Source: a phage
Strand: one strand, 5' to 3'
Assembly: GCA_025823825.1 (NCBI GenBank)
Contig: GCA_025823825.1_4720.1
DNA: 64,000 nt
Shown here: one piece after another, positions 18,797 through 43,489 of the stretch
Position numbering within the stretch: the first letter of the stretch is position 1
Layout: each line of letters begins with the position of its first letter
Notes under the pieces: generated by a model
What the model was told of the DNA's origin: nothing
The model's input: only the letters and a program-made list of their open reading frames with translations
Databases searched by the model: none
Position numbers and translations under genes: made by a program

Positions 18797-18797
18797 A

Positions 18798-21771: not shown

Positions 21772-22464
21772 GGATTTGTGTTACAGAAGGGTTTTGTTGT
21801 TTTTAAGAAGGGATGGATTTAGAAGAGGTGTTTCAAGGAAGGTAAACGAGGATAGGTATTTTGATTTAAGTAAGTAAGATGTTATCTGTATTTGTTAAAA
21901 GTGTATTGTTTATCTTAGGTTATGTCTTATTGTTTAATCGTTTAATATTTTTATCTACGTAGGTTTAACTCTATCTTGTTTGTATATTTAAATTAATTTA
22001 AAAGTAAGTCAATAAGCGTATCTTCAAAACAATGGATAACATGTGTTTACTACCTTAACGGTAACACATGTCATCTGTGCATTACACTCCGTTACATGCT
22101 GGTTAAATCGGATAACTCAAAAAAACATTTGTGATACTCTTCTTCACGTTGTTCATCAGAGTATCTCGTCTATACTCATTGCATTCGTATACGACATAAC
22201 CGTTATACGCTAACGCTACGCTTATAGCTTGATAACTCTAAGGATAAAAACATAAACTCGCTTCGCTCGTTTAGTTTTTCTTTTTCTTAGAGTTATCCTG
22301 TTGCTCGTCTCTAAAGGACTTCGCTCCTCCCCCGTCCCCCGAAGGGGCCGAGGTCGTGGAAATTTTACTTTCCAAATACATTTACAACATCTGTAAACTT
22401 TTACTCCAGGTACTTAATCTTATCATTAGAAATTATAAAAGAGAAGAATAAACATAAACATAAA

Positions 22465-22496
22465 CCTTCCTCCAACCCAGCAGGGAAGGAGGAAGG
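22465..22496. terminator. conserved CCTCC/GGAGG hairpin element (family member 4)
   Basis: CCTTCCTCC-AACCC-AGCA-GGGAA-GGAGGAAGG, 12 nt downstream of the stop of 22508..23401; CATAAACATAAA on the 5' flank. Confidence 0.6.
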
Positions 22497-22507
22497 GAGA
22501 GATTAAA

Positions 22508-23401
22508 TTATTCGGAAACGTTATAGCCGAATACTGCTTTACCGTAGGTGTGGGTACCGTCAGCTAACGACACCACTAACACATTGCTGTACGTAGCGTT
22601 AACACCATTGTCGGTAGAACTGGTGGTAGCACCGTTATAGACAAAGGTAGCTGTTTGCAGATTGGTTTTCAGTTCATTGATGATATCATCACTTACGCCG
22701 GTCTGCTCTTTGATCAGGGTGGTCAGGTTACCTGCTAAGCTTGCATCGATCTTGGTGTCGTTACTGGTAATAGCTTGTAAACCTGCAGTGTAGGTGCTGA
22801 AGTCTAACGGATAGGTTAACAGACGCGCTGAGGTCTTGGTACCATCGCCTTCATCAACGTAGGTTAAGTTACCCAGGTTGGTAACCTCGATGATGTTAGC
22901 CAGATCCAGCGTGGTGTTATAAACTTTAACTTGAACAGAGCCATACCACGCCAACGAATCTTCTTTGGCTTCCAGGGTGATCGTCTGGATACCAGACTGA
23001 TCGAAGGTAACCGGAGTAGCTAACGTTTCGGCTTTGATGTCTTTCGCTTTATCCAGGAACTTCTCACCGGAAGGCGTGATCATACCGTAGCGTTGAGCTA
23101 CAAGGTCAACCACATCACCGATGGTGGTGTTCGCCTCAACGTTAACACGTACGGCGATCTTCTGGAACCACTTAGCCAGATCCAGACGATGGTAGGTAAC
23201 ATCGCGGTTATTGAAGTAAGGGGTACCTTCACCAGGACTAAGTGTTAAAGTTGCTTCTGGAGCAGAAGGATTCTTTTCTTTAAGGACGTATTTAAGGTCG
23301 GTATATTTAAAGCTGGCACCAGTGTCAGCGTTAAGCTGGTTGATCTCATCAACGATAAGTTGCCAAGGTGTTTTTAAAGTAAGCGATACTTGAGCAGTCA
23401 T
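22508..23401 (-). CDS. abundant Thr/Ser/Asn-rich protein, probably structural (297 aa)
   Basis: Track ORF 22508..23677 trimmed to the ATG at 23401 (GAGGAAG upstream); codon usage is biased toward E. coli-preferred codons. Confidence 0.6.
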   Translation of the reverse strand: MTAQVSLTLKTPWQLIVDEINQLNADTGASFKYTDLKYVLKEKNPSAPEATLTLSPGEGTPYFNNRDVTYHRLDLAKWFQKIAVRVNVEANTTIGDVVDLVAQRYGMITPSGEKFLDKAKDIKAETLATPVTFDQSGIQTITLEAKEDSLAWYGSVQVKVYNTTLDLANIIEVTNLGNLTYVDEGDGTKTSARLLTYPLDFSTYTAGLQAITSNDTKIDASLAGNLTTLIKEQTGVSDDIINELKTNLQTATFVYNGATTSSTDNGVNATYSNVLVVSLADGTHTYGKAVFGYNVSE

Positions 23402-23540
23402 TTTCTTCCTCGATAGTTGGTACATCACTCTCAAAAGATGTAAGTGTTTACAGAAATTAATATATTTTATATTAAATGTGAATATTATGGAGAACGACTC
23501 CGAATCTCCTTTTCGACCATCAAAATCAGAGGACACGAAC

Positions 23541-24086
23541 ATGTCTACTTTAGACTTTAACAAAGCAGCGAAATCCCTTCTGCTTGATCTTATTAACACC
23601 AAAGCGACCCGCACATTGGCTGAAGAAGAACTGCAGTTCGGTACTCCGCAGGAATCTTCCGAACATGAAAAGAACACCGTTATTCAGCTGGACGCGGCGG
23701 CTGAAGCAGCTAACCTGCAGGGTACTCAGCAGTTCTACTACGATCGTCTGGCTCTGTCTGACGTTTTCGCTGATGTAACTGGTGATGTTACTTTCGAACT
23801 GCCGCACGGTACTGACAGCATTCAGGCTTCTGAGCTGGTAAGCAAGCTGGTCACCAAATTCGGTCTGGCTTCCCTGAATGGTGAAATCAGAGAAGAAACC
23901 TTCCAGCTGTCTGCCGGTACTGTTGGTGAGGTAATTCTGAATGCGATCGAGGGTGGCCTGGTATACACTGGTACTCTGCGAGTTGCCCTGACCTACGCAC
24001 TGGCACCAAAAGACGAACTGGCAACCGTTCTGGCGAATAACGTAGCTGAAGGTTTCGAGAAACCGACCGTTAGCGTTGTTGGCTAA
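23541..24086 (+). CDS. abundant small protein, probably structural (181 aa)
   Basis: ATG with AGAGGA 8 nt upstream; very strong codon bias (CTG, GGT, CGT, ACC, CCG); the antisense ORF 23550..24095 was rejected. Confidence 0.65.
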   Translation: MSTLDFNKAAKSLLLDLINTKATRTLAEEELQFGTPQESSEHEKNTVIQLDAAAEAANLQGTQQFYYDRLALSDVFADVTGDVTFELPHGTDSIQASELVSKLVTKFGLASLNGEIREETFQLSAGTVGEVILNAIEGGLVYTGTLRVALTYALAPKDELATVLANNVAEGFEKPTVSVVG

Positions 24087-27204: not shown

Positions 27205-29802
27205 TTATAACGTGACTGTACCTAATTTGGTTGTCTTATTGAGATTAATGACAGAGATCTGGGTATCGCTGGTCGTAATCGTTCCGATATTAACGCGCTG
27301 TCCTTTATCATCTTCTTGCTTGTAGATGGTTAACTCCAGTTCTAACTGGTCGCCATTAGGAACAACGGAAACGTACCATGTTTTATTACCTGGTGAACTA
27401 TTATAGTCTTTTAGGTTATAATGGCCTTTAGGTAAGGTCATGGCCTTACCGGCAAACAAACATGAAATGTCCTCGTTGATATAAACGTCGAAACCGGAAG
27501 AAGCGATGACTGTTGAGGCCATTATTCGAGACGCGACGATACCACGATTATAGTCGTCGATTGTGGTACCTATGACATTGAATACTTGCCCCCCGTTACC
27601 CATAATGGTCGATTCGCTAGTGTTTACGTAGCCGATACCCCAAGTCGGATGAATGTTCCAGCGGTACCCACTGTTTTGTAAATACGTATACAAGTCTTCA
27701 TAGGCCGCATTCACCCAACTACCATCACTTTTTCGTCCAGCCCTAAATTGGAATGTGTTGCTATTTCCAGATGTTCCTCGGCCAAGAGGGACATGTCCCG
27801 CCACCAACCAACCATCTGTACTTTGCATATACGCGAACGAACCGTACGCTCTGTTATCGGCCCAAATATTCACGGTATCAACACGTTCAACGTAGGCGAT
27901 CACCTTTTGTACGCCGGTTATAGCGATTGAACCCTTGCGTGCCGACACATTAACTTCAGCAATTACGACACCCATTTTCCGCTGGCTGCTGTTAAATCCC
28001 AATACGACCATTAAACACGGTGCGTTTGTTGTTTCTGGAGGAATCGTTATCGATTGTTTCCAGTCGGTGATTCCGCTGAGTTTCGTTCCAGTATATGCGT
28101 TCCAGACGGTTTGTCCAGCCGATTTCAGATTCTGTTCAGAAATAGAAATGGCCTCGCCCTCAGGGATTAACGTGTCGTAATTGAGACCAATGTTGCTGGA
28201 TAGACGAAGGTCGTTTAAGTAAGATCCGCTGAGTGTGACGTTACCGTTACGATAAATTGTCAAGAATGGCGCAGCCAGGGAGTTTAATACCGTAAAGTTA
28301 CTCGATGGCATGAAACCATAGACATCGATGCCATTACCGTGGTAATGGTAGTTTGTCCAACTACCTTGATAACTTACGGTACGTGCATCGTAGTGGCCTT
28401 GTCCAAGACCGCTGCTGGATAACGTGTATATCTTGGTTGCTGATAGAAATGCGAGATATCCATGCGCTGCCAGAGCTCCAACTACCCTGTCTTTTATCTT
28501 TAACCAAGCTGAAGTATATAACGTACTGTCGGGATTCATTTTGGCTATTTCATCGTAAGCCGTGCCTGCGAAGTTTCCGATAGTGTACGTACGTATATCC
28601 GGCTGTCCGTTATTGTCGTTTTGTACAGCAATTACTTGCCCAGAATCATTGATATCGATATTACCGATACAGTTGTGAGCCCCCCACACCCAATATCCAT
28701 CTTTATAATTGGATTCTCCTTGTGTAAATGTCGACGGTCCTCGCCACGCGATGCCGTTCGATTCGGCGTAGTATGTAGCTTGTCCCGATCCTGGATTCAT
28801 GGCGTATCTGTTATTGGTCGGGTCAAAATCGATGTAAAAATGATGCATTCCTTGACGTTGACGGTTGTCCCGATCATTTGTCCACCACGACGAACCGACC
28901 AGAATTCGCGCTTTACCATTTTTTACAGTGGACCATAAACGTATTGCGGCGCGCCAGACGATTTGACCGATCCCGTTGGACGGGAAACTATTCGCACTGA
29001 TGCTGTTGCAGACAACGAGCTCGCTGCTGTTGTTTATTTGAGTCCCTTCAATTGTAACGCCGTTTATGTTAGTAATCAGTGTTGCCGATACGCTACCCCC
29101 TGTAGGGGCGATAGAGGAACGTTGAACGGTGTAAATTTTTAGTGATAATTTATAGCCGCTCCGAATAGCTATACCAATGTAAATAGTTCCGTTAATTTCC
29201 CAACAACAAACATCGGGCATTGTTTCTTTGAAATCGGATAAAGCACCGTCGATATACATCGCAACGTGTTTGCTGGCGTCGAATGTGCCGTCCGTTAACG
29301 CGATGAACATTTTGGCATTATTACCGTTGATATCAGCCGCTAATCCGAGTAGTATGTTGTTCTGATGACAGTAAATGGCTTTAGGCGCTAGATCCAACAT
29401 AGCTGGTTGGTACTGTCGGCTTGTTGGTATTACGCTAGTAACTGCGCCATTTTGATCCGTTTTACAAATAACGTAATATACACCGTGTATGATGCTGTTT
29501 GTCGCTGACCTCAGTAGGACGATCGTCCCGTCAGATTCACGACATATACCGTAATGGCGATAGTCGGTGATTAAACCGATAGCGCCATCGGCCGAACCTT
29601 CGATTGCCAGAGGAAAATAACTTTGGTCCCCAACCTGTTCGATATCGGTTACGCCAATATCGATGTATTTTTCCATCTCGGTGTTGAACTCAGCGGTACT
29701 GTAGGCACCGAGATCGCTCGCCTTTAGTCCCGTTGGGTTGTCACGACTGGCGATACGTGTAGTAACGCTACTCACCAGTTCGCTGAACTTTTTCATTGCC
29801 AT
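27205..29802 (-). CDS. large tail fibre or tail spike candidate (865 aa)
   Basis: Sits in the tail-fibre block; N-terminal ...RDNPTGLKASDLGAY... is related to the NP..VT.AQ motif of neighbouring fibre genes. Confidence 0.45.
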   Translation of the reverse strand: MAMKKFSELVSSVTTRIASRDNPTGLKASDLGAYSTAEFNTEMEKYIDIGVTDIEQVGDQSYFPLAIEGSADGAIGLITDYRHYGICRESDGTIVLLRSATNSIIHGVYYVICKTDQNGAVTSVIPTSRQYQPAMLDLAPKAIYCHQNNILLGLAADINGNNAKMFIALTDGTFDASKHVAMYIDGALSDFKETMPDVCCWEINGTIYIGIAIRSGYKLSLKIYTVQRSSIAPTGGSVSATLITNINGVTIEGTQINNSSELVVCNSISANSFPSNGIGQIVWRAAIRLWSTVKNGKARILVGSSWWTNDRDNRQRQGMHHFYIDFDPTNNRYAMNPGSGQATYYAESNGIAWRGPSTFTQGESNYKDGYWVWGAHNCIGNIDINDSGQVIAVQNDNNGQPDIRTYTIGNFAGTAYDEIAKMNPDSTLYTSAWLKIKDRVVGALAAHGYLAFLSATKIYTLSSSGLGQGHYDARTVSYQGSWTNYHYHGNGIDVYGFMPSSNFTVLNSLAAPFLTIYRNGNVTLSGSYLNDLRLSSNIGLNYDTLIPEGEAISISEQNLKSAGQTVWNAYTGTKLSGITDWKQSITIPPETTNAPCLMVVLGFNSSQRKMGVVIAEVNVSARKGSIAITGVQKVIAYVERVDTVNIWADNRAYGSFAYMQSTDGWLVAGHVPLGRGTSGNSNTFQFRAGRKSDGSWVNAAYEDLYTYLQNSGYRWNIHPTWGIGYVNTSESTIMGNGGQVFNVIGTTIDDYNRGIVASRIMASTVIASSGFDVYINEDISCLFAGKAMTLPKGHYNLKDYNSSPGNKTWYVSVVPNGDQLELELTIYKQEDDKGQRVNIGTITTSDTQISVINLNKTTKLGTVTL

Positions 29803-30871: not shown

Positions 30872-33025
30872 TTATAACGTTTCGAAGTCGGTTGCTTTGA
30901 TAACCGCGTTGAAGTTGGCAAGGAATTCCTTAAGCAGTGCTTGGAAGACATCACGAAACGCTGTGTTCGTCTGCAAGCTGGTTAAATAATCGTTCTTAAG
31001 GTAATCGCTCAGCTTACCGATCTTCTGCATCTTCTCGCCGTCTTGGTTCTCTCCAGGTTCTTGGCTGTTGATGTTAACCCATTTGATCCCTTCGAGATCG
31101 CCATCGGCAAGGAAGTTGGCGGGTGTCTCATCGTCGTTCAGGATTTTAATCGTATCACTGGATTCAATGCCACCGTAAGCTTCCAGAAGCTGGTTGACTG
31201 TTAGCTTATTGGTGTTGATTGAACCATTGACACCATCGATACCGATGCCTGCACCTGTGATGGATGTCGCCGAAAGATCGATCGGTCCGGTTAACTTACC
31301 ACCGTTGATCGGTAACGCACCAACTTGCTCAGCGGTGTGTGTGTGGCCAGCTAACGCCGCAAACGCCACGATAGACTTATACGTCGAATACGGCGTCATA
31401 TACGCTGATTGGTTGGTGTTGTCAGCCGCTTCAGTATCGGTAGCAACATTAAAGTTCTGCACGTTGCTGAGACCGACCTGCACCTTCGTTACTTCATGCG
31501 GGTTGCTCTTATTGACAACGTGTGCTGCAAAACCATCACCAGCTAAAGCAGTGATTGCCGCTTTTGTCGCAGCCGGTGTCATATAGCGGTTGGTTGCTTC
31601 ACCCGTTTGCGCCTCTTCGTCGGAAGCAACAGGATAGTTCTCAACGCTTCCCAAACCGACCTGAGATTTTGTTACTTGGTGTGGGTTTTCGGTATTCGCA
31701 ATATGACTACTGAACCCTTGACCCGCCAGTTGCTCGATTGCGTAACGAACAAGTATTGGTGTCATGTACTTGTTGTTAACTTGACCATCGATAGCTTCTT
31801 GGGTGGTGGCAACCCCGAAGTTTTGCACGCTCCCCAACCCAACTTGCGCTTTCGTAACAGCGTGGGGGTTATTGGTGTTACCGATGTGATCGGTAACCGT
31901 TGGGGTGATTAATCCTGCGATAGCGGCTGCCGTGGTCGCAGGGGTCATGTATTTATCGTTAGCAACACCCGCAGCAGCTTCTACGTTAGATGCTACACCG
32001 TAGTTCAATACATTTCCTAACCCAACCTGAGCCTTGGTTACCCCATGTGGGTTATTGGTGTTGCCGGTATGGGTTGTCAACGTAGCGTTAACGTTATCGA
32101 TACGCGTGCTTAAGCCATCGGTGATTGCTTTGATTGCGGCTCGTACGCCCGCTGGTGTTGTGTACAGATTTGTGGCCGTACCGGTAATGGTTGTATTACT
32201 ATCAGCTACACCGTAGTTCTCAACGTTTCCGAGTCCCACCTGGGCTTTCGTTACCTTGTGTGGGTTGTTGTAGTTGCTGATGTGCGCAGCAGCACTATCA
32301 CCACTCAGGTTAGCGATCATCTTACGCGTCATCGCCAACGTCATGTACAGATTTTCACCGATGGTTTCCAGATCGCTCTCGGTCGCCGTTGTGAAGTTCT
32401 GAACATTCCCCAATCCAACTTGAGCCTTGGTTACCCCGTGGGGGTTATCGCGACGATTCTCGTGCTGCAGCAATGCGGTCATTGCTTTATTGAACCCTTC
32501 TTCAAGCGGTTCTTTCAATGATTCGATTGCCGCCACCACATCGTCCCACGTCATTGTGTCGGTTTCGACATTATGTTGGTGGTTGATTGGTGGGAATACG
32601 GAAGGAACGTCGGCAACCTTTTCCCAGAACGTAACGCGGGGATCGTAAAGGTTGTTGGCTAAAACGTTAAGAATTTGTTGTTGATCAAGTGTAAACTCAC
32701 CCCCCAGTGAATAGTAGTTCAGTTGCAACTGTCCACTGAATGCGGTGTCCAACAGCATGATGGAACCGTATAATTCCAGGCCGGTCAGCGCAGCCATGGC
32801 ACGGAAGGGGTGAGTGCATAAAAAGTCAACGCCTTCTTCCAGATACGCGTTTGTTTCATGGTTGTAGATCTTTAACCCATTACGGAAATATGGCGCGTAT
32901 TTAGGAACGAGAAAGTTAAATCCGGTCCCCGTGGAAGGACGGACAGTGACGAGTTCTTCTGGAACCCATGCGCCATCCAAATTCCCCTGCGGGTTATACG
33001 GAAGGCGTTTAATTTCATCTGTCAT
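30872..33025 (-). CDS. tail fibre protein with about 7 tandem repeats (717 aa)
   Basis: Repeats NPH[GA]VTKAQVGLGNV.NF/Y...A.AG..N.YMTP; C-terminal HTHTAEQVG. Confidence 0.7.
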   Translation of the reverse strand: MTDEIKRLPYNPQGNLDGAWVPEELVTVRPSTGTGFNFLVPKYAPYFRNGLKIYNHETNAYLEEGVDFLCTHPFRAMAALTGLELYGSIMLLDTAFSGQLQLNYYSLGGEFTLDQQQILNVLANNLYDPRVTFWEKVADVPSVFPPINHQHNVETDTMTWDDVVAAIESLKEPLEEGFNKAMTALLQHENRRDNPHGVTKAQVGLGNVQNFTTATESDLETIGENLYMTLAMTRKMIANLSGDSAAAHISNYNNPHKVTKAQVGLGNVENYGVADSNTTITGTATNLYTTPAGVRAAIKAITDGLSTRIDNVNATLTTHTGNTNNPHGVTKAQVGLGNVLNYGVASNVEAAAGVANDKYMTPATTAAAIAGLITPTVTDHIGNTNNPHAVTKAQVGLGSVQNFGVATTQEAIDGQVNNKYMTPILVRYAIEQLAGQGFSSHIANTENPHQVTKSQVGLGSVENYPVASDEEAQTGEATNRYMTPAATKAAITALAGDGFAAHVVNKSNPHEVTKVQVGLSNVQNFNVATDTEAADNTNQSAYMTPYSTYKSIVAFAALAGHTHTAEQVGALPINGGKLTGPIDLSATSITGAGIGIDGVNGSINTNKLTVNQLLEAYGGIESSDTIKILNDDETPANFLADGDLEGIKWVNINSQEPGENQDGEKMQKIGKLSDYLKNDYLTSLQTNTAFRDVFQALLKEFLANFNAVIKATDFETL

Positions 33026-34420: not shown

Positions 34421-34452
34421 CCCTCCTCCAACCCATCAGGGAAGGAGGAGGG
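34421..34452. terminator. conserved CCTCC/GGAGG hairpin element (family member 5)
   Basis: CCCTCCTCC-AACCC-ATCA-GGGAA-GGAGGAGGG; flanks CATAA ... AATATG. Confidence 0.65.
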
Positions 34453-34461: not shown

Positions 34462-35367
34462 TTATGCTACATATAACGTTAGATAACCGTCGATGAGCGT
34501 ATTCATCACACTGAGTTGAAGTACGACAGCTTTACTAACATCCGTACGTACACCAAACGGGAGTGTTTTGAATTGCTCTGGATCGGCTATTACTTTCGCG
34601 TTCTGCAAGTTGAGTGGTCCAGGCATTGACGACAATACCCAGCGATCGTTGACCATAAGGCCGTCGATCTCTTCAGAGAGACCCAATTGCAGTGCGTTCA
34701 TTTCTGCGATTAGTGCCTCCGATTGCGTATCACCTGAGGTTAACGTATACCCATCGGTAAGTGACGCCAGAACACCAGCAGATACGAACCAGTTGTACGA
34801 AACAATAGCGCCTGGGAGTTTACTGCTATCTCGATCGATGATATAATTCAACCCAGCCAACATATTGTTGCGAACGAGGTTGTTGAGGTCGTTATGTCCT
34901 GAAGTTAACTCAACAAGTAATTGACCAACCCATACTTGGTTACCGGGTTTAGGTGTTATCGCAACCTGTATCGGTGACCTGGACTTATCCAGATCCGCGT
35001 CGACAATCTCGGTTTTGTTGAGAAGGATACCGTACGTCGATGCTAAGACAGGTAGGATCTCAGAGACCTTGGTTAATGCATCTAAGGTTTCGATCTCGAT
35101 GGGCCAGTGGTGCTGTCCGCCAGACCAAGTACCCAGTTTACCAAGATCGATGCGGTTATAATAGATGTCGACAGAGTTCACCAGCCCTGAACCAGGTTGG
35201 GGATGCACGGTTAACTTGCTGTTACGCTTGTACCCTGTGCTTTCAGAAGCTTCACCGATAACCAGTTTATCCAGCGTTACGCCTCGAGCATCGAAATCGC
35301 TATGCTTTCGAATCAGCCGAAAGAGGATTTCTTTCGATTCTAACCCCAGGATTTCACTGTACTCCAT
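34462..35367 (-). CDS. paralogous virion-type protein, family member A (301 aa)
   Basis: Shares STYGI, RWVL, NLQNAKV and a C-terminal L..Y motif with 36284..37135 and 37146..38081. Confidence 0.6.
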   Translation of the reverse strand: MEYSEILGLESKEILFRLIRKHSDFDARGVTLDKLVIGEASESTGYKRNSKLTVHPQPGSGLVNSVDIYYNRIDLGKLGTWSGGQHHWPIEIETLDALTKVSEILPVLASTYGILLNKTEIVDADLDKSRSPIQVAITPKPGNQVWVGQLLVELTSGHNDLNNLVRNNMLAGLNYIIDRDSSKLPGAIVSYNWFVSAGVLASLTDGYTLTSGDTQSEALIAEMNALQLGLSEEIDGLMVNDRWVLSSMPGPLNLQNAKVIADPEQFKTLPFGVRTDVSKAVVLQLSVMNTLIDGYLTLYVA

Positions 35368-35382
35368 TTAACACCTCTTAGG

Positions 35383-36267
35383 TTACGGTAGGATTTCTGC
35401 GCCCGTCGGGCCTGCCTTACGAGCTTCCAACGCACCAAGGTCGTATTTCAGTGTCAGCGTATCGTTGGTGGTATAAAGGTTGTGGTAAGTCGAAATCAGA
35501 TCGGTAACCTGCGCGCCGACGATTTCGTTCATGTCGAAGGTAGAACCTTGACCATCATCAGCACGAACGATTTTATCGCCAGCAGAGACCATCCCAATTT
35601 CAGAAATAACCGCGTACTCTTCACCACCTTCTGTGAGTTTAGCCACATTGAGATATTCGTTAATATCCCATGGCGTCCAAACCAAAGAGACTTTACAGCT
35701 GTAGTCGTAGTACTCCCCGGTCGCTACCAGAATTCCGGTTGTTGGAATATCCGGTCGGGCGGGGTTGAGGTTCGCGTCGGTTGGATGCCATTCGATGGTC
35801 TGAGCGACGCCGTCGACGTATTTGGTATAACGCATGGAGCGGACAACGTTATCGAAATCGATGCGACGACCGTAATAACAGATATACTTTTTACCGCTTT
35901 CCAGTGTCTCAATACGACGTAACCCAAATTTAGCGCGTTCGTCTGTGGTTAAGTCGTTACCAACCTCACGCATTACGAAAGGTTTGATTTTCCACGGTGA
36001 AAGATCGCTTGCTTCGTGAGCGATCGGCATCGAGGAAGGGATACCGTTAGCGTTGCGGATGAATTCGTGACCCTGGTTGCCGATACAGAAGTAACGTACA
36101 GCAGGATTACCCTCGGGGTAAACCTTTGATTGAATCTGAAGCTTTTCATTCAAGGTGCTGTGTTCTTCCCACGCATGAGGAAGACCGAGCGTAAGGTTAG
36201 TTTGTACTTGACCGCCGATAATCGTACGGACGATACGATCGGTAGCACGGATTTGTGTAGAAGCCAT
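35383..36267 (-). CDS. hypothetical protein (294 aa) in the same operon
   Basis: Track ORF; no clear similarity to its neighbours. Confidence 0.6.
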   Translation of the reverse strand: MASTQIRATDRIVRTIIGGQVQTNLTLGLPHAWEEHSTLNEKLQIQSKVYPEGNPAVRYFCIGNQGHEFIRNANGIPSSMPIAHEASDLSPWKIKPFVMREVGNDLTTDERAKFGLRRIETLESGKKYICYYGRRIDFDNVVRSMRYTKYVDGVAQTIEWHPTDANLNPARPDIPTTGILVATGEYYDYSCKVSLVWTPWDINEYLNVAKLTEGGEEYAVISEIGMVSAGDKIVRADDGQGSTFDMNEIVGAQVTDLISTYHNLYTTNDTLTLKYDLGALEARKAGPTGAEILP

Positions 36268-36283
36268 GTCTTTTCCTATTTAA

Positions 36284-37135
36284 TCAGTTATATTGCATCA
36301 ACAGGATACCGCCGTAGTTCGTGCAGTAATCTTGGCTAAGCGTAACGATAACAGCGTTAGCGAACGCGGGGTTAACAGGATAACCCTGTGCGATAAGTTC
36401 TGTTGTTTTACCGGTTGCAAGCACGGTGGCTCCGTAAAGGTTGTTTTCGTCTTCACGGCCGTTATAAACCCACGGGGTTGGTGCAACGTTGTTGAATAAG
36501 CTAACCAATGCGCTTAAGTTACCACCAACTTTTAACCCAGCAAGATCGGAACGGATCGCTGTACAGTCTATAGCGTAACTGTAGACCAGTGCCTGGATAC
36601 GATTTGCGGTGTAGTACGGGAAATTGAGACCGGTCATCACCGTGGTCTTCATCATCCCCGCAATATCGTGGGCACTATCGAGAAGATAGAACGTAACGCT
36701 CCCCGTCCAAGCCAATCCGGTTGTTTTCAATTCTACGGTGTGTGGGAACGGATATTCATCGCCTCGTACAATCGGAGAATCGACGCAGCTATCCTGATCG
36801 ATAACGATACCGTACGTTGATTGAATCAGAGGGATAAGATCGTGTGTCGTTTTAACCCCGGCATCGATAGCAAGCTTCGGTTCCATCCCCAAGAAGAAGT
36901 CTTGAATAGGGATACGATCGTACCACACGTAGCTGCTTTCACGGTATTGTGCTGGTGTTACTGTTGCCGAAGGCGATACTTTCGCGCGGGTGTTCCGTTT
37001 ATACGCATGGTTTCCGTTTTCAGCAACATCCGTGATATCAAGTGCATCGAAGTTAAAGTCGAAGTCAGGATTGGCTGCCTGAATAAGTTCAGCGACCAGT
37101 ACTTTAGGACTTTTGTTTAACAATTTCTGACTCAT
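36284..37135 (-). CDS. paralogous virion-type protein, family member B (283 aa)
   Basis: Motifs QSTYGIVID, NLYGATV and LSQDYCTNYGGILLMQYN parallel members A and C. Confidence 0.6.
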   Translation of the reverse strand: MSQKLLNKSPKVLVAELIQAANPDFDFNFDALDITDVAENGNHAYKRNTRAKVSPSATVTPAQYRESSYVWYDRIPIQDFFLGMEPKLAIDAGVKTTHDLIPLIQSTYGIVIDQDSCVDSPIVRGDEYPFPHTVELKTTGLAWTGSVTFYLLDSAHDIAGMMKTTVMTGLNFPYYTANRIQALVYSYAIDCTAIRSDLAGLKVGGNLSALVSLFNNVAPTPWVYNGREDENNLYGATVLATGKTTELIAQGYPVNPAFANAVIVTLSQDYCTNYGGILLMQYN

Positions 37136-37145
37136 TGTTTATTCC

Positions 37146-38081
37146 TTAGCCTTGTTCTTCTGGAGAACGACCCTGGAGGCTTGCGGTATGTCCGTCGACG
37201 TTGTAATAGAAAATCAATGGACCGCCAACGGCAGTACAGTAGTTTTCATCCAGACTGATCTCGATACCGTATTGGTAACCTGCTCTTGCTGGAATACGTC
37301 CGCCTAACTCACCGTTGAAAGCCACTTTAGCATTATACAGGTTATACGGTGCGACATTGTCGTCTAATACCCAACGATCGGTAGTCATTTCAGCCAGAAG
37401 ATCGGCAACCACCACATCGCTAATAACTGTACCTGTTACCAGCGAAGCCAGCAGTTCACCGTAATCAGAGGTATCACGACTGTAACTGTAAATCTCACCG
37501 CTAGCGCGTACGCCTTGACCAAAGAACTTAAGACCATCCAGCTCCTTGATCGCGATAATATCATCAAGATTCGGTACACGCGACTTCATCAAGATACGAA
37601 CGCTCCCCGTCCAAGCCAGGCAGTTAGATGCGACACGAAGCAATTGTCCGTTAACAGTATCCCAGTTAAGTTCGTCGTTGACGATTTCTTCCGCGGTAAG
37701 ACCAAGACCGAAACGTTCTTTGATGATAGGCCAGATATCACGCATCTTGGCGGCGTCTGGCGCATCGATAAGAATAGGAGCTACGTTACGCAGATACGCA
37801 CCGATGTTAATACGGTCGTAATACAGTGTCGTCGAACCTTCGTAATCGTCTAACTCGGTAAGCTTAGCGGTTGCTGTCGCCGTAATCTGGGTGTCGCGCT
37901 CATAGGCGCTTTGGTTGGTGGTTGGTGTTCCTAAAACCAATAATTCAGGGGTTAGGATATGCTCTCCGTTCTGAGGTGGGTTATCGTGGTTGATAAGACC
38001 ATACACGAGATCGGATGAGGGTAAAGAGACGTCGACCGGGTAAAGTTCGGTGTCGTCAATAGTTGTTACCGTATCACTCAC
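37146..38081 (-). CDS. paralogous virion-type protein, family member C (311 aa)
   Basis: Motifs ERFGLGL, TDRWVLDDN, NLYNAKV and LDENYCTAVGGPLIFYYN. Confidence 0.6.
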   Translation of the reverse strand: MSDTVTTIDDTELYPVDVSLPSSDLVYGLINHDNPPQNGEHILTPELLVLGTPTTNQSAYERDTQITATATAKLTELDDYEGSTTLYYDRINIGAYLRNVAPILIDAPDAAKMRDIWPIIKERFGLGLTAEEIVNDELNWDTVNGQLLRVASNCLAWTGSVRILMKSRVPNLDDIIAIKELDGLKFFGQGVRASGEIYSYSRDTSDYGELLASLVTGTVISDVVVADLLAEMTTDRWVLDDNVAPYNLYNAKVAFNGELGGRIPARAGYQYGIEISLDENYCTAVGGPLIFYYNVDGHTASLQGRSPEEQG

Positions 38082-38140: not shown

Positions 38141-40552
38141 TTAAACGTCCTCGATAGGCAAAGGTTTAACAATCAAACGATTGAGCGGATTCGATAGACG
38201 CATACTGATAGGCTTATACGCAACATGATTCGTCTCACTTAGAGCCACTGATCTGAAACGACCGTTCAACCGTTTGTAAATCGGTTCTATCCAGAGACCT
38301 CGAAGATCACGTTTACGGAAACGTTGTTCGAACGGTTTGATTGGGGTTACGGTTAACCCACGCAACGACTCTGATGGCAGACGCTCACGAAGGTCGCGTG
38401 GTGCCCGACCTGGGAACGGTGCAAGCCACAAACCATCGAGCGGATTTTTACGGAAACGCAACGAGACAGGATCGCTAATGACTTGTGCCCAATATTGCGT
38501 ACTGAATCGAACGGTTTGGGTGTTCTCGTAACCACTACAATCACACCAGGTTGGTTTCGGAGGCGCTTCCAAACTTTCAACCGCCGATTCACGCCAGTTC
38601 GTCATCGGGTTGTTATCATGTACGAATTTGATAACTTCCGTAGCCTGGTTATCCGTATCATGAACGTTTGCCTGTGCCCAGTCTTCCCACAGTTCTTCAC
38701 TACCACTTACTAAACTCGAACCGAGACGAACGGCGATTTTATTTAGTGGTTTGATTGGGTCACTGTTGATTGTCTGGATAAAATGGATGGTGTAACTGCT
38801 CAATGTCTTAAGCAGCTGCAGCATTCCGTATTGAATATCCTTAAGACTGGTGACATCTTCCAAATCCTGGCCGGTGGCCTTTGTGAAGATATCGAGAGCC
38901 AGAATACCCGCCTCTTCTTGACTGATTGCGTCAAGCTCCCAATCCATCGATAAGAACCATTCCTTGTAAAGCTGTCCAATACCGAAGTCGACACCAACAT
39001 CCATGTAGAAGTTTTCAACGATTGCTTCAGCCATGCCTCGAGCTTGATAATGTTCTTGGAGCTGATACATGAACTGATGGCGACGCCAGCCCTGGTAAAT
39101 CTCGGTAACGGCGCTCAGAAACTCTTCAGTACTGACGACAGCACGCAGCGTCACTTGCTTATCCAAACACCACCAGATCAGTTTATCGGGAATGATAGCA
39201 GGATCGGTAATGCTACGGAGATGGTCGAATGTCGGTAGCGTTAACACCCTGACGTGGTTAGCATGGATCTTAGGTACTTCAATCAGCGTCATGCCCATCG
39301 AATAGTTCAGCAAATACAAGAACAGCTTGTATGCATCTTTCATCGACATCGTCATGGTATCACCCGTCACCGGGTTGGTTGTCGTTAACCGTGACTGATA
39401 CATGCCTATCGCGCTAAGATGAATCCATTCGTTCAGCAGGAAATCATACTTAGGATACAGTTCACTGTCTGTAAGGTCTTCGGCTTCACTTTCCAACACC
39501 TTGGTCGTTAAGGTATTGTTGTCATGCATCGACATCTTCTCTATCGTGCGGTTAAGCTCGGTATAATACTCCGCTTCGTTATCCCGCGCTAGAGGGAACT
39601 GTTGCTGCATCACGGTGGTGACCTTACGTCTTACCGTGCCATTACCGACGATCTCTTGAAGGTTAAGCGGTTTACGCTCCATGTAAACTGCGGGTTTTAA
39701 CGTCTGGGGTATCTCGGAAGCGTCTTGTTTGATCGAGAACGCACCGATTGGAATTCCACGATCGGTTAATACCTTTTGAATGAGCTTATCGTAGTTTTCC
39801 GTTCTGCCCATGTTTCTTTCAACGTAAGCGATGTTACGATAGAACCAGAGCATTTGGGATTCGGTCATGTATCGCTTGAATCGATCGAGACCTTGATGGC
39901 TTGCCAGATAACTCCAGATATGGAAGCTATGGGCATAATGGGTATGACAGTTTTCCCAACGAATACCTTTTATCATCTCAGGTATTTGTGTGAATAGGAT
40001 GGCGTATAGCGCAGGCCAATGAAGCATATCGACGCTCTCATATGCCGGATGTTCCCAGCGTCTGAAGTAATCGTCGATTTCTTGCTGTAAACGTGGAATA
40101 AGATTGGCCTCGCGTGACTCAACCTCTTGTGTATCGTACCAGAGAATCTCATGATTGCGTGCCGCAATTGCTTTCTCGATATCGATGGGGTTAAGGATAC
40201 CCAAGATCAACATACGTTGTTCCGGGTACCGCGCAATTAAACGATTGAAATAATCTCCACCATACGCGTATTCCCTTGCCGTCATGCGATGCCGTAACAT
40301 GTTTTCCTTGGTGAACTCGATCTCTTCGAGCGTATCCAGGGAATTTACGGTCATCATTGTCTGACAAGGATGATACTCGCCAGCGAGATTCATGTAGTAT
40401 AACCACGTGCGTGGGTCGTCCCCGACGGCCATCTGGTAGACTTCGGAAACCTTGAGGTTTAACCGTTCTGCCGTGATGTCGCTTTTAATAATCAGGGTGT
40501 CCGTTAGACGCTGCACGCTTTCCGAATAAAGCTGATAGTCAGTGTTGGACAC
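38141..40552 (-). CDS. large hypothetical protein with C-terminal RFRK..GLW repeats
   Basis: Track ORF 38141..40621 (TTG start); GTG at 40552 has GGAGGA 6 nt upstream and avoids overlap with the divergent gene. C-terminal repeats LRFRKNPLDGLWLAPFP / RFRKRDLRGLWIEPIYK / GRFRSVALSE. Confidence 0.55.
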   Translation of the reverse strand: MSNTDYQLYSESVQRLTDTLIIKSDITAERLNLKVSEVYQMAVGDDPRTWLYYMNLAGEYHPCQTMMTVNSLDTLEEIEFTKENMLRHRMTAREYAYGGDYFNRLIARYPEQRMLILGILNPIDIEKAIAARNHEILWYDTQEVESREANLIPRLQQEIDDYFRRWEHPAYESVDMLHWPALYAILFTQIPEMIKGIRWENCHTHYAHSFHIWSYLASHQGLDRFKRYMTESQMLWFYRNIAYVERNMGRTENYDKLIQKVLTDRGIPIGAFSIKQDASEIPQTLKPAVYMERKPLNLQEIVGNGTVRRKVTTVMQQQFPLARDNEAEYYTELNRTIEKMSMHDNNTLTTKVLESEAEDLTDSELYPKYDFLLNEWIHLSAIGMYQSRLTTTNPVTGDTMTMSMKDAYKLFLYLLNYSMGMTLIEVPKIHANHVRVLTLPTFDHLRSITDPAIIPDKLIWWCLDKQVTLRAVVSTEEFLSAVTEIYQGWRRHQFMYQLQEHYQARGMAEAIVENFYMDVGVDFGIGQLYKEWFLSMDWELDAISQEEAGILALDIFTKATGQDLEDVTSLKDIQYGMLQLLKTLSSYTIHFIQTINSDPIKPLNKIAVRLGSSLVSGSEELWEDWAQANVHDTDNQATEVIKFVHDNNPMTNWRESAVESLEAPPKPTWCDCSGYENTQTVRFSTQYWAQVISDPVSLRFRKNPLDGLWLAPFPGRAPRDLRERLPSESLRGLTVTPIKPFEQRFRKRDLRGLWIEPIYKRLNGRFRSVALSETNHVAYKPISMRLSNPLNRLIVKPLPIEDV

Positions 40553-40579
40553 GATCGGTCCTCCAAGGAGCCAGTGTAA

Positions 40580-43489
40580 ATGAACGATATAAATAAAGGG
40601 CGCGTCGCCCTCGAACGTCAAATGAGCAATAATGACGTTGCGAAGGCACTCATGAACAAATTTGTCGCTCCTGCTCCGCAGTCACGTCTTTATAATACAC
40701 GTGATGCGGAAGGAGCGAACGGTCGTTTCGGGTTAGTTGTTCCCGACCAAATGACGATGAACACGGTTACGCGTGCGACCGCGACAAACATCGAGGATAA
40801 TAAAAACATCCTCGAGTTGTTCCCTGAACTTAAACGCGTGATGCAGATCTATGTTGCCGCGTTGACGAACCCTAACGATCTTAAGACGGTCGAGATGTTT
40901 ATCGACAGCGAAGATTTCCCCGGCAGAGTCGCAGAAATCGTTCAGCCGATGATCGATACCATCGACACGCATTTTAAGAATATCTATAAAATAAAGACGC
41001 TTATCCCTCGTATCATCGAAGACGTCTTCTTTATCAAGGGCAGTTATAACTTCGTTGTTCTGCCGGAAAGCACGCTCGACCGCGCCATTAATGGTAACGG
41101 TCAACTGAAACTTGAAGAATACGGATTTAAAGACAACCATTTTGCAAGTTGGGGGCTTCTAGGTAACGACAGTCGCAAACGCCACGAAAATCAATTACCT
41201 GCGACGGTTTCGATGGAAGATTATTTCTCGGGTGTTAATGAAACCATACCGTACGATCCTGTTGTTCGCATAGACAGCATCAAGTTTACCAATACCCTGC
41301 TTCGCGATAAGGACGGTAAATTCATTGAAGCGAAGATCGATATTCCGGATATGGTTACGGTTGTCGATAACCCAGACATCCTCCGCATGCCTATTCTGCA
41401 TCAACGTCGAGCAGCGACAGCAGTGCAGCGTGCGTTACGCGCAAACACGTTAGGAGGTAGTGGTTTGGTAACGCTGTCAGGCGATCCGACCCTAACCGCT
41501 AACCGACGTGAGCTGTCGCAAGAACAGGTTAACGAGATCTGGAATAAGCTCAACATCCAGCGCCACACCAAGGTATCGCCCGTTTACGCGCTGGCAACCC
41601 CAGATACGCTTGATCGTCAAAGCGTTGGCCATCCTGGCGTGATGCATGTACCACCTGAGGCATTAGAACCCGTACATGCGCCCGGTGATCCTGAGAACCA
41701 TATCGGGTATTTGGTTCAGTTGGATGAGTTTGGTTATCCAGTACGTTTGGTTGAAGATGCGGCGTATTACAAGCAGTTGGAAGGTCGGTTGTCGAAGATC
41801 ACCGCAGATATCGCAGGTACGTCAAGCAACGGCATGGCGAGCGAGATGATTGGTGCAGCCAAGAACATGATCCAAGGTACGTCATGTAATCAGGTAGACA
41901 TGTCGGCCTTCGTATCATCGTACGAATCGCTGATGCAACGTTACATTGTCGAACGTATCGTTAACGGTTATCTTGGCAGTGCGGTGGAGATCGGTGCGAC
42001 ATCGTCGTTTTATCTGTCGATGCTTGCTCGTAGCCTCGCTCACAAGCAGACCCGTGTTTTGTTTATTCCTCGAGAGATGGTGACTTACATCGCCTATGAA
42101 TACAACAAATACGGTATCGGTCGTTCGCTGCTTGAAAGTACGAAGATGATCTCATCGCAACGAGCCATGCTCATGGTTCAAGAACTGATGGCAAAAATCA
42201 AAAGTTCGTTGAACTATACGACGCTAAGCGTAATGCTTGAAGACACCGACAGAAACCCGGTCGATACCGTCGAACAAGCGCTGCATAGTTTCGCTCGTGT
42301 CTACCAGTCTGGTTTCCCGTTGGGTGAAACTAACCCGATGGATATCATCAACGCGTACGAACGAAGCTCGATTCGATTGAAGGTTGAGGGGAATAACCCA
42401 CGCTTCCCGAAATTGAATACAGACGTCAGTGTTGAGCAGCGTAACTATCAGTCTCCTGATAATGAGCTGATGGATCGTTACCGTCGTGACCATTTCATGG
42501 GCTTGGGTGTGTCTCCGGAGATTATCGATACTTCCTACCAATCTGAATTCGCAGCTTCTGTGATTACAGCTAACGCGATGCAAGAGAAACAGTTCACGGT
42601 TTGTCGTGAGGTGATCACGAATGGGTTATCGGACCACATCAAGAAATATACGGCATACAGTCCCGTGTTGTTGACGTCGTTACGAAACACGGTTCGTGCG
42701 AACATGTCTAAGCTTTCCCAGGCACAATTGAAGCAGCTTTTTGGTAGCGATTTCGAAAACGGTGTTATCCGTAACGTTAACGCCTATCAGGAGATTGACG
42801 ACCAATCAGCAACAATGGATCTGGATTACACTAAACCAGAAGTCCAGGAAGTTATTGCCGATGCTTATGTGTCCATGTTCTTAAACAGCCTGCGTGTGCG
42901 TTTACCGGATAGCAATGCTCGTCGCCTTGAAGATCAGGTACGTGAATATAATCAGTACAAGGAAGCGATTACTGCGCAACTTGATGATTATTTAACGCCC
43001 GATTACGTCATGGGTCTGGGTGGGGTTGATGAAACAACGCTGCAGATGATCCGCGCATGCATTATTGGTACCGCGATGCGTACGTGGGCAAAAGAGAACA
43101 ACTTCAATCAGGAGCTGGCTGATCTCTTCAGTCTTGACGATAAGAAGAATGCCGTGCAAGATTGGAAACGTATGTCCATGGAACATATTGAAGTCATGGG
43201 TAAATGCATGGGTGATTTTGCATTGTATATTCAGAATCTGACGAAGAAGATTGAAGAGAAGATGGGAGCTCAAGCACAGGACGGTAGCGTTTCATCTGAT
43301 GGTTCGTGGTCATCCGATTCAAGTAGCGATACCGGTTCTTCTGATGACTTCGGTGGCGGTGACGATTTCGGAGATACCGATTTCGATACCGAAACGATGG
43401 AGGAAACCTCAACAGAAGAAACAACCACATCTGAGGATACGACGACCGACACAACGTCAGAAGACGATACTTCAGGTGACATTGTCTAA
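40580..43489 (+). CDS. large hypothetical protein with acidic Ser/Thr/Asp-rich C-terminal tail (969 aa)
   Basis: AAGGAG 10 nt upstream of ATG; the last about 70 aa are ...SSDGSWSSDSSSDTGSSDDFGGGDDFGDTDFDTETMEETSTEETTTSEDTTTDTTSEDDTSGDIV. Confidence 0.6.
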   Translation: MNDINKGRVALERQMSNNDVAKALMNKFVAPAPQSRLYNTRDAEGANGRFGLVVPDQMTMNTVTRATATNIEDNKNILELFPELKRVMQIYVAALTNPNDLKTVEMFIDSEDFPGRVAEIVQPMIDTIDTHFKNIYKIKTLIPRIIEDVFFIKGSYNFVVLPESTLDRAINGNGQLKLEEYGFKDNHFASWGLLGNDSRKRHENQLPATVSMEDYFSGVNETIPYDPVVRIDSIKFTNTLLRDKDGKFIEAKIDIPDMVTVVDNPDILRMPILHQRRAATAVQRALRANTLGGSGLVTLSGDPTLTANRRELSQEQVNEIWNKLNIQRHTKVSPVYALATPDTLDRQSVGHPGVMHVPPEALEPVHAPGDPENHIGYLVQLDEFGYPVRLVEDAAYYKQLEGRLSKITADIAGTSSNGMASEMIGAAKNMIQGTSCNQVDMSAFVSSYESLMQRYIVERIVNGYLGSAVEIGATSSFYLSMLARSLAHKQTRVLFIPREMVTYIAYEYNKYGIGRSLLESTKMISSQRAMLMVQELMAKIKSSLNYTTLSVMLEDTDRNPVDTVEQALHSFARVYQSGFPLGETNPMDIINAYERSSIRLKVEGNNPRFPKLNTDVSVEQRNYQSPDNELMDRYRRDHFMGLGVSPEIIDTSYQSEFAASVITANAMQEKQFTVCREVITNGLSDHIKKYTAYSPVLLTSLRNTVRANMSKLSQAQLKQLFGSDFENGVIRNVNAYQEIDDQSATMDLDYTKPEVQEVIADAYVSMFLNSLRVRLPDSNARRLEDQVREYNQYKEAITAQLDDYLTPDYVMGLGGVDETTLQMIRACIIGTAMRTWAKENNFNQELADLFSLDDKKNAVQDWKRMSMEHIEVMGKCMGDFALYIQNLTKKIEEKMGAQAQDGSVSSDGSWSSDSSSDTGSSDDFGGGDDFGDTDFDTETMEETSTEETTTSEDTTTDTTSEDDTSGDIV

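Follow-up and report, generated by a model that had tools for sequence, protein, structure and literature searches.

In the cryo-EM atlas of phage phiKZ, a band of five gp139 dimers runs from the wedge protein gp128 to gp127, the sole solved member of the DUF7941 family, and gp130 joins the lobes of the peripheral baseplate; gp129 is the portal according to the literature. The DUF7941 family has been reported to be chimallivirus-specific. In a transposon screen of phiKZ, the DUF7941 genes tolerated insertions (gp126: 8, gp127: 21, gp143: 5), whereas gp128, gp129 and gp139 were without insertions. A recent preprint fitted a gp126-gp127 heterodimer into unexplained phiKZ baseplate density, named, modelled and quantified gp31, gp33 and gp34 of Escherichia phage Goslar among ten DUF7941 proteins, and proposed head-to-tail DUF7941 filaments that are anchored on the peripheral baseplate (bioRxiv 10.64898/2026.04.21.720040). 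AlphaFold 3 dimers were predicted to be head-to-tail and gp22 filaments were observed by negative stain, gp22 being the only DUF7941 protein for which filament formation was shown; the role of a filament cloud in host recognition is a proposal of this preprint, which is without peer review. Analysis of purified Goslar virions by LC-MS/MS gave copy numbers, rough to about ±50%, of approximately 8 for gp31, 112 for gp33, 27 for gp34, 577 for gp22 and 2144 for gp23, the most abundant DUF7941 member (bioRxiv 10.64898/2026.04.21.720040). In Goslar gp86, gp92 and gp161, DUF7941 is combined with carbohydrate-binding, glycosidase or leucine-rich-repeat domains. DUF7941 density is absent from the 7.9 Å map of the peripheral baseplate of Goslar (bioRxiv 10.64898/2026.04.21.720040), so that the baseplate location in Goslar-like phages rests on the analogy with phiKZ.

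The stretch of DNA analysed here (the window, 64,000 nt) is 97.3% identical to Goslar, which points to a Goslar-like chimallivirus, i.e. a nucleus-forming jumbo phage and relative of phiKZ, as the source. Window homologues of Goslar gene products are designated by the suffix h (gp31h, gp32h, gp33h, gp34h, gp22h and gp35h), and the features are compiled in Table 1. The first-pass annotation had called four consecutive genes of a virion-type operon, in which three were taken for tandem paralogs encoding virion proteins of a phiKZ-like phage and the fourth for an unrelated gene; all four reading frames were recovered on the minus strand.

Table 1. Features of the wedge/spoke operon, its flanking genes and further DUF7941 genes in the window.
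Feature	Coordinates	Strand	Remarks
gp22h, DUF7941, 297 aa	22508..23401	-	local profile E = 2.7e-21; Pfam DUF7941 E = 1.4e-51
Goslar gp23 homologue, DUF7941, 181 aa	23541..24086	+	local profile E = 1.1e-12; Pfam DUF7941 E = 3.1e-19
Goslar gp30 homologue, 426 aa	33130..34410	+	convergent with the operon; related to phiKZ gp130
Terminator hairpin	34421..34452	-	ends the gp35-gp31 operon; flanked by the gp30 and gp31 homologues, which are convergent
gp31h, DUF7941, 301 aa	34462..35367	-	last operon gene; most divergent of the three
gp32h, DUF7208, 294 aa, baseplate spoke filament protein	35383..36267	-	Pfam DUF7208 E = 1.1e-96
gp33h, DUF7941, 283 aa	36284..37135	-	Pfam DUF7941 E = 5e-48; 98.6% aa identity to Goslar gp33
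gp34h, DUF7941, 311 aa	37146..38081	-	follows the wedge gene as the first DUF7941 gene
gp35h, 803 aa, upper-wedge baseplate protein, phiKZ gp128 homologue	38141..40552	-	first operon gene
Goslar gp36 homologue, 969 aa	40580..43489	+	divergent from the operon; phiKZ gp129 homologue

The gene of gp35h and the four genes are tightly packed with gaps of 10-59 nt and are followed by a strong terminator hairpin, and gp31h, gp33h and gp34h are very probably co-transcribed with the wedge (gp35h) and spoke (gp32h) genes. The hairpin was missed by a simple terminator scan and recovered by RNA folding (-33.1 kcal/mol, z = -5.9, none of 200 shuffled sequences being as stable); a U-rich tail is visible, and Goslar is annotated with a terminator at the same position. 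Since phages of this type transcribe with RNA polymerases of their own, a sigma-70 promoter scan, which returned fewer sites (6) than expected from shuffled sequence (11.5), was uninformative. The start codon of gp34h is GTG, preceded by the ribosome-binding site GAGGAGG. Translation of gp35h starts at position 40552 with a GTG and not at the TTG of the mechanical reading frame at 40621, as a GGAGG ribosome-binding site lies ahead of this GTG and PDB 11lx_Bh (E = 0) aligns from residue 25 of the reading frame. Plus-strand reading frames of 61-146 aa overlap the four genes; lying antisense to genes whose family and structure assignments are strong, they were regarded as mechanical. The operon adjoins tail-fibre-like genes (gp29 and gp25 homologues).

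That the operon is of virion type was borne out, and it can be specified as a baseplate module: the adjoining gp35 and gp32 have solved baseplate structures, and the Goslar orthologues are present in virions by mass spectrometry. Homologues of phiKZ gp128, gp139 and gp127 share this one operon. Thus, gp35h matches phiKZ gp128 with E = 1.9e-110, and gp32h, which differs from the 11lx chains by 3 substitutions in 294 aa, matches the chains of PDB 11lx/11pb/36za with E = 1e-200 and phiKZ gp139 (9xpg/9xqd) with E = 1.6e-42; each spoke is described as five dimers of a gp32-type protein. Among the flanking genes, the gp30 homologue was related by BLASTP to phiKZ gp130 (E = 3.7e-26) and also to Deimos-Minion gp16 and SA002_16, and the gp36 homologue to phiKZ gp129 (E = 1e-73) and Deimos-Minion gp6 (E = 6e-91).

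The proposed paralogy was verified by pairwise BLASTP, which would have spoken against it if scores had been non-significant. The pairs gp33h/gp34h (E = 2e-20) and gp31h/gp34h (E = 7e-13) align over nearly their full length, and gp31h/gp33h (E = 2e-10) over the first ~175 residues only. All three proteins match Pfam PF25613 (DUF7941) with E = 5e-48 to 3e-63 (189.7, 164.4 and 214.2 bits at a gathering cut-off of 27 bits, profile positions ~2-275 of 276). The fourth protein is indeed unrelated to them: the best BLASTP E value of gp32h against gp34h was 0.37, and gp32h matches Pfam PF23838 (DUF7208) instead (323.6 bits, 27-bit cut-off). Two further DUF7941 members in the window (22508-23401, minus strand; 23541-24086, plus strand) had been overlooked. 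Of these, gp22h, with E = 2e-10 to 8e-9 against the three paralogs, comprises a full N-terminal domain, linker and C-terminal domain, while the gp23 homologue covers profile positions 4-174 of 276 and consists of the N-terminal domain and linker only. The statement that the function is unknown is outdated, given the family assignment, the placement of phiKZ gp127 in the peripheral baseplate and the proposed filament-forming role in host recognition.

The ordered motifs on which the tandem family had first been recognised are real, but they are not common to all three proteins. STYGI is found in gp31h and gp33h and ERFGLGL in gp34h; RWVL and NL[YQ]NAKV are present in gp31h and gp34h, where gp33h carries PWVY and NLYGATV. 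The C-terminal motif reads LDENYCTAVGGPLIFYYN in gp34h and LSQDYCTNYGGILLMQYN in gp33h and is degenerate in gp31h (LSVMNTLIDGYLTLYVA), and the expression formerly given for it (L..[ED]NYCT..GG.L[IL]..YN) had its spacing wrong by one residue. The motifs fall on the best-conserved columns of the family, i.e. G125, W237, N247, L248, A251, V253, G287, L289 and Y293 in gp34h numbering. The 'disordered' interdomain linker of DUF7941 is conserved in both sequence and length, with L172, L181, G183, L184 and Y/F186 kept at fixed length across 113 divergent members. In addition, natural proteins with tandem fused subdomains were found in the arrangements NTD-NTD, NTD-NTD-NTD and NTD-CTD-CTD.

AlphaFold2 models of gp34h comprise a globular N-terminal domain (17-166), a linker (170-189, pLDDT <50) and a globular C-terminal domain (190-297), and those of gp31h likewise an N-terminal domain (1-157), a linker (158-191) and a C-terminal domain (192-300); in gp33h, the N- and C-terminal sub-profiles match at 6-153 and 178-283, respectively. 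With a mean pLDDT of ~74 and a pTM of 0.50, the relative domain orientation in these models is not interpretable. The underlying alignments were shallow because the homologue searches returned few or mostly gp22-like sequences: a word-indexed search with gp34h alone yielded 6 proteins, and the profile query yielded mostly gp22-like sequences of Goslar-like contigs. The N-terminal domain has a fold like that of phiKZ gp127 (PDB 9xqd chain 0), whose full-length sequence is matched by the DUF7941 family profile with E = 5e-19. Single-sequence PDB searches returned nothing relevant for gp34h and gp31h and a marginal match to phiKZ gp127 for gp33h (E = 0.0015), so that the link of the paralogs to gp127 is solid only through the family profile and the fold searches, in which no lectin-like or receptor-binding-like match appeared. 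Against ten phiKZ tail proteins, the DUF7941 sub-profiles matched gp127 only. Two other families were considered and rejected for the four proteins, namely phiKZ gp131-gp135, the tandem paralogs of baseplate or tail-fibre type reported earlier for phiKZ (best BLASTP E = 0.21 to 5 with any of the four) and the inner-body family Pfam PF12699 (no match at E ≤ 0.01).

The gene order wedge, DUF7941, DUF7941, DUF7208, DUF7941 is identical in Deimos-Minion (Agricanvirus) and in Salmonella phage SA002. Identity of Deimos-Minion and SA002 to the window is about 25-37%. The counterparts of the three paralogs (gp8, gp9 and gp11 of the Agricanvirus phages RAY and Deimos-Minion, and SA002 genes 08, 09 and 11) are 26-34% identical to them, and RAY gp8, gp9 and gp11 were given as DUF7941 proteins (bioRxiv 10.64898/2026.04.21.720040). 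Orthology was judged from reciprocal best hits only, since the neighbor-joining tree is based on rough distances and carries no support values. These hits pair gp34h with gp8 and gp33h with gp9 (Deimos-Minion gp9, E = 4e-20); for the third position, gp31h and gp11, no reciprocal best hit was obtained. As the order DUF7941, DUF7941, DUF7208, DUF7941 is kept in distant chimalliviruses, at least two of the DUF7941 duplications are old. By tblastn, 124 phage records gave matches; among these, the 40 that were listed are jumbo phages of 210-305 kb (SPN3US, RAY, CR5, 2050HW, pVa-21 and phiKZ-like groups).

It is rather likely that gp31h, gp33h and gp34h are lower-copy DUF7941 members which act at the spoke tip as anchors of head-to-tail chains. 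Their most likely place of assembly is the distal tip of every gp32 spoke in the peripheral baseplate, where phiKZ gp127 is found. In head-to-tail joining, each protomer would dock through its linker and C-terminal domain onto the N-terminal domain of its neighbour. The chains would have gp31, gp33 and gp34 as their anchor, or the part nearest the baseplate, and the abundant gp22 and gp23, proposed to aid host finding, as their bulk. The sequence features, i.e. the conserved fixed-length linker and the natural tandem fusions, are consistent with head-to-tail oligomerisation, and the transposon insertions in phiKZ suggest that DUF7941 proteins are accessory. With approximately 112 copies, gp33 is at odds with a simple anchor of 6 or 12 copies. 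This number is likewise high for a fixed site on a six-fold structure, which weighs against the somewhat unlikely alternative that the three proteins constitute a fixed, ordered scaffold of the peripheral baseplate lobes and that only gp22 and gp23 polymerise. Such a scaffold would agree with phiKZ gp127 being ordered in the star-lobe density and with the fit of the gp126-gp127 heterodimer to adjacent ordered density, with gp31, gp34 and gp33 being 5- to 250-fold rarer than gp22 and gp23, with the retention of positional orthologues over large distances, and with the ~98% identity to Goslar, compared with 88-89% for gp22 and gp23, which fits constraint. However, the complete module is retained, including the conserved linker implicated in head-to-tail joining, and in phiKZ the DUF7941 genes are dispensable while the true scaffold genes gp128 and gp139 are essential. 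A static scaffold and a filament anchor are not fully exclusive, as an ordered anchor can seed a chain.

It is very improbable that the three are receptor-binding proteins which set the host range. In favour of this reading, the family has been proposed in the preprint to act in host recognition, and gp86, gp92 and gp161 carry extra domains. In gp31h, gp33h and gp34h, however, nothing beyond the DUF7941 module is present: additional domains for binding or catalysis are lacking, and no receptor-binding-like or lectin-like fold was matched. The tail-fibre-like neighbours gp29 and gp25 would suit such a function; still, the three have diverged little from Goslar (97.7-98.6% aa identity) in comparison with a likely fibre protein, the gp26 homologue (66%). 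Less probable again is an origin in the head or inner body, an idea that derives from labels: PHROG 1037, 2935 and 3589 are listed as 'head and packaging / virion structural protein', the GenBank note on phiKZ gp128 reads 'structural head protein', and old phiKZ annotations label neighbouring genes in the same way. The PHROG category is, however, a generic label tied to 'virion structural protein', cryo-EM puts gp127, gp128 and gp139 in the baseplate, and PF12699 is not matched. If the three paralogs are chain anchors at the spoke tips, they might moreover be non-interchangeable and form one ordered hetero-oligomeric primer per tip (gp34, gp33, gp31 in the order of the genes, or graded in stoichiometry, ~24 : 100 : 6), which would template and cap the gp22/gp23 chains via the conserved linker motif. 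This is a speculative extension to which little probability is given; the old positional orthologues, the unequal copy numbers and the conserved linker allow it. If true, a virion-attached polymer would have a defined system of nucleation and capping, which would have been conserved from before the split of Goslarvirus and Agricanvirus.

The analysis confirmed the three genes as true paralogs of an already described family and the fourth as a structurally solved spoke protein. As a Pfam entry exists, the 2026 preprint covers the orthologues and a deposited structure of the phiKZ baseplate contains one member, the result carries little weight as a discovery and its value is one of annotation: genes labelled 'hypothetical / virion structural' become DUF7941 peripheral-baseplate proteins and the intervening gene a baseplate spoke protein. 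Added here are an old triplication that is conserved in position and has the spoke gene interleaved, the linker motif, the tandem subdomain fusions and the dispensability of phiKZ DUF7941 genes in the transposon screen, which provide handles for testing the head-to-tail filament model of chimallivirus host finding.

In chaperone-usher pili, a flexible segment of one subunit docks on the next by donor-strand complementation. The principle proposed for DUF7941 is alike in that a conserved segment unfolded in the monomer would complete or bind the neighbour to give a polar chain, but the two systems share neither fold nor sequence similarity, and we know of no chaperone or usher for DUF7941. The docking geometry of DUF7941 is an AlphaFold prediction from the preprint. 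In phiKZ, the wedge gene is likewise followed by DUF7941 genes (gp128-gp127-gp126); there are two of them, gp126 having the N-terminal domain only, in contrast to three in the window, and the spoke gene gp139 lies ~13 kb away, whereas the spoke gene of the window is interleaved. Identity to phiKZ gp127 and gp126 is 18-23%, with no clean one-to-one orthology, since the choice of paralog depends on the criterion: the best sequence matches of phiKZ gp127 are gp22h (E = 5e-11) and gp33h (E = 2e-8), its counterpart in gene position is gp34h, and in copy number it is nearest to gp31.

The closest relatives are those of Goslar. The gp22/gp23 type shares the DUF7941 module but is encoded by a divergent pair ~11 kb away, outside the wedge/spoke operon, and its window homologues are far more diverged from Goslar (gp22h: 88.2% aa identity) than the three paralogs. 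The window represents a different Goslar-like isolate, as seen from the gp26 homologue and from a 2.2-kb insertion at 56306-58540, and gp31h, gp33h and gp34h, with 4-7 aa substitutions each, occur in the same order, in the same operon and in the same Pfam family as Goslar gp31, gp33 and gp34.

The region is 97.3% identical at the DNA level to Escherichia phage vB_EcoM_Goslar, a chimallivirus, that is, a nucleus-forming jumbo phage and a relative of phiKZ. On the basis of their positions and of 97.7-99.4% protein identity, the four genes were assigned as homologues of Goslar gp31, gp32, gp33 and gp34, which follow gp35 (here gp31h to gp35h; other homologues in the window are named likewise). 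All four open reading frames were found on the minus strand exactly where the first-pass annotation had placed them, and its interpretation of three of them as paralogous virion genes of a phiKZ-like phage was supported. Every pairwise BLASTP comparison among the three was significant: gp33h and gp34h (E = 2e-20) as well as gp31h and gp34h (E = 7e-13) matched over most of their length at 24-26% identity, and gp31h and gp33h (E = 2e-10) over the N-terminal ~175 residues only. gp32h, which had been considered unrelated, indeed gave E = 0.37 at best in BLASTP (against gp34h). The motifs said to be shared all exist, but each is exact in just two of the three proteins. STYGI occurs in gp31h and gp33h and is replaced by ERFGLGL in gp34h; RWVL and NL[YQ]NAKV occur in gp31h and gp34h, with PWVY and NLYGATV in gp33h; the C-terminal motif ...YCT..GG.L...YN, which had been written with a spacing wrong by one residue, is present in gp33h and gp34h and degenerate in gp31h. 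Since the motif positions coincide with the columns that are most conserved across the wider family, a real family signature had been captured.

Membership of gp31h, gp33h and gp34h in the DUF7941 family (Pfam PF25613) is essentially certain, with scores of 164-214 bits against a cut-off of 27 bits. All three also matched PHROG 1037 ('virion structural protein'), and a family profile of 27 sequences searched against the PDB matched full-length phiKZ gp127 (E = 5e-19). gp32h matched Pfam PF23838 (DUF7208), differs very little from chains in the PDB entries 11lx, 11pb and 36za of the Goslar virion and is related to phiKZ gp139 (E = 1.6e-42). gp35h (803 aa) matched Goslar chain 11lx_Bh and phiKZ gp128 (E = 1.9e-110). 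The feature is already known: there is a Pfam family, the structure of a relative has been deposited, and the same genes are named in a preprint; synteny, family size and architectures, linker conservation, dispensability in phiKZ and divergence from Goslar are additions to this literature.

Features of the window, with copies of the Goslar counterpart per virion (mid-estimates, Table S4 of bioRxiv 10.64898/2026.04.21.720040)
Feature	Position	Strand	Length	Copies	Remark
gp22h	22508-23401	minus		~577	profile match
gp23h	23541-24086	plus		~2144	profile match; N-terminal domain and linker only
gp26h	27208-29802	minus			
gp29 homologue	30872-33025	minus	717 aa		tail-fibre-like
Terminator hairpin	34421-34452				closes gp35h-gp31h run; -33.1 kcal/mol, z = -5.9, then U-rich tract
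gp31h	34462-35367	minus	301 aa	~8	
gp32h	35383-36267	minus	294 aa	~179	
gp33h	36284-37135	minus	283 aa	~112	
gp34h	37146-38081	minus	311 aa	~27	
Insertion ORF	56273-56719	minus	148 aa		tandem
Insertion ORF	56831-57691	minus	286 aa		tandem
Insertion ORF	57745-58545	minus	266 aa		tandem

The paralogs are linked to wedge and spoke genes in one run, with the order gp35h, gp34h, gp33h, gp32h, gp31h on the minus strand and gaps of 59, 10, 16 and 15 nt. A terminator at the position corresponding to that of the closing hairpin is annotated in the Goslar record too. The start of gp35h was set to the GTG at 40552, which is preceded by a GGAGG site and agrees with the solved Goslar chain; chain and site together ruled out the TTG at 40621 that opens the mechanically called ORF (38141-40621, minus). 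The latter would overlap the start of the upstream, divergent gp36 homologue by 42 nt; with the GTG start the two genes are separated by just 27 nt. The phiKZ relative of the gp36 homologue is gp129 (E = 1e-73), called the portal in the literature, and that of the convergent gp30 homologue downstream is gp130 (E = 4e-26), which joins the lobes of the peripheral baseplate.

A profile built from gp31h, gp33h and gp34h was used to search the window and revealed two further members, gp22h and gp23h. With a threshold of E <= 1e-3, an exhaustive profile search yielded 2,726 clusters (50% identity); with E <= 1e-10, the number was 1,222. AlphaFold2 models of gp34h (mean pLDDT 74.6) and gp31h (mean pLDDT 73.8) consist of a confident N-terminal domain (NTD), a low-confidence linker (residues 170-189 and 158-191, respectively) and a C-terminal domain (CTD). 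This NTD-CTD architecture is the majority form among 229 retrieved family proteins (181), next to NTD-NTD (15), NTD only (11), NTD-CTD-CTD (5), triple NTD (5) and long C-terminal fusions of up to 1,970 aa. Covalent concatenation of modules is a prediction of beads-on-a-string assembly. The linker, unstructured in the monomer model, has a fixed length across 113 divergent members and includes residues that rank among the better conserved in the family (L172, L181, G183, L184 and Y/F186 in gp34h numbering). Segments that become folded upon binding a partner typically show this pattern.

In the phiKZ structural atlas (PMC13250141), gp128 is a wedge protein, and a band of five gp139 dimers runs from it across the outer baseplate to gp127. 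In the Goslar virion preprint (bioRxiv 10.64898/2026.04.21.720040), gp35 is the upper wedge and gp32 the spoke filament, and the orthologues of our three proteins, which are present in virions, are listed among ten DUF7941 proteins (gp22, gp23, gp31, gp33, gp34, gp86, gp91, gp92, gp93 and gp161). The same work reported AlphaFold 3 head-to-tail dimers for DUF7941, gp22 filaments in negative stain and a phiKZ gp126-gp127 heterodimer fitted to unexplained baseplate density; in the map of the Goslar baseplate, none of the resolved density belonged to DUF7941 proteins.

On balance, we favour a model in which gp31, gp33 and gp34 would be located at the outer tips of the gp32 spokes, joined head-to-tail via linker and CTD, forming the baseplate-proximal portion or anchor of DUF7941 chains that gp22 and gp23 would extend. 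The spoke-tip position is proposed by analogy with phiKZ gp127, and polymerisation of the three proteins by analogy with gp22, each the sole demonstrated case. The ~112 copies of gp33 are a poor match to a simple six-fold anchor. The main rival, which we regard as less likely and which partly overlaps with the anchor model, is that the three proteins are a fixed scaffold of the peripheral lobes and that only gp22 and gp23 polymerise. Insertion data from a phiKZ transposon screen (PMC12676376, Supplement 2) bear on this choice: the DUF7941 genes gp126, gp127 and gp143 carried 8, 21 and 5 insertions (3,351, 2,802 and 332 reads), whereas none fell in gp128 (wedge), gp129 (portal) or gp139 (spoke). 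DUF7941 is therefore dispensable for laboratory plaque formation in phiKZ, and this is more in keeping with an accessory function in adsorption than with that of a core scaffold.

Divergence from Goslar differs between members. With just 4-7 residue changes each (~98% identity), gp31h, gp33h and gp34h are conservative and hence probably baseplate-proximal members; gp22h and gp23h, whose counterparts are the two most abundant DUF7941 proteins, are only 88-89% identical to Goslar, much more diverged than the three paralogs and most neighbours, which hints at faster evolution of exposed filament subunits. A direct receptor-binding role of the three proteins is very improbable given their low divergence and lack of an extra binding domain, and a role in the head or inner body, contradicted by the phiKZ baseplate structure, is hardly credible.

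Several other differences from Goslar were observed. gp26h shares 65.7% protein identity with Goslar gp26 (4 gaps; flanking genes 98-99%), had no match in a Pfam search and is located between two tail-fibre-like genes, the homologues of gp25 (Peptidase_S74 domain) and gp29; a host-recognition protein may thus have undergone mosaic exchange here. The gp29 homologue contains about six repeat copies with NPH.VTKAQVGLGNV.N, which account for its matches to many PHROG tail-fibre families. The first 6.6 kb (1-6663) lie ahead of the point where the Goslar record begins, and the arbitrary start of that record therefore falls inside the window. Positions 6664-23999 align to Goslar 1-17317 at 95% identity and are more divergent than the remainder; only 69% of a 24-kb query aligned, and ~0.8 kb within 6664-23999 did not. 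A segment of ~2.2 kb (56306-58540) is missing from Goslar, which has ~40 bp there instead, within the 62-aa gp047. The three ORFs of the segment, without match in Pfam or PHROG, share C-terminal motifs as judged by eye, and the 286-aa and 266-aa ORFs have a common ~100-aa module (BLASTP, E = 6e-21, 38% identity). Goslar gp047 has the look of a remnant left when such an array was deleted.

The gene order of the window (divergent portal-like gene, wedge, DUF7941, DUF7941, DUF7208, DUF7941) is conserved in Erwinia phage Deimos-Minion (Agricanvirus, RAY-like) and Salmonella phage SA002, whose proteins share only ~25-37% identity with their counterparts in the window. gp34h and Deimos-Minion gp8 (E = 2e-40) as well as gp33h and gp9 (E = 4e-20) are reciprocal best hits, and thus at least two duplications are older than the split of these genera; in the third position, gp31h and gp11 are not cleanly orthologous. 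That the copies were kept apart argues for non-redundant roles. The orthology of phiKZ gp127 is ambiguous: it is closest to gp22h and gp33h by sequence, to gp34h by gene position and to gp31 by copy number. In phiKZ the order is wedge, gp127, gp126 and the spoke gene lies ~13 kb away, unlike the interleaved gp32h. In Salmonella phage SPN3US, at least eight DUF7941 genes (gp128 to gp121; 115393-122930) are arranged head-to-tail, of which gp124, gp122 and gp121 matched the NTD profile only; this expansion is far larger than that in Goslar-like phages.
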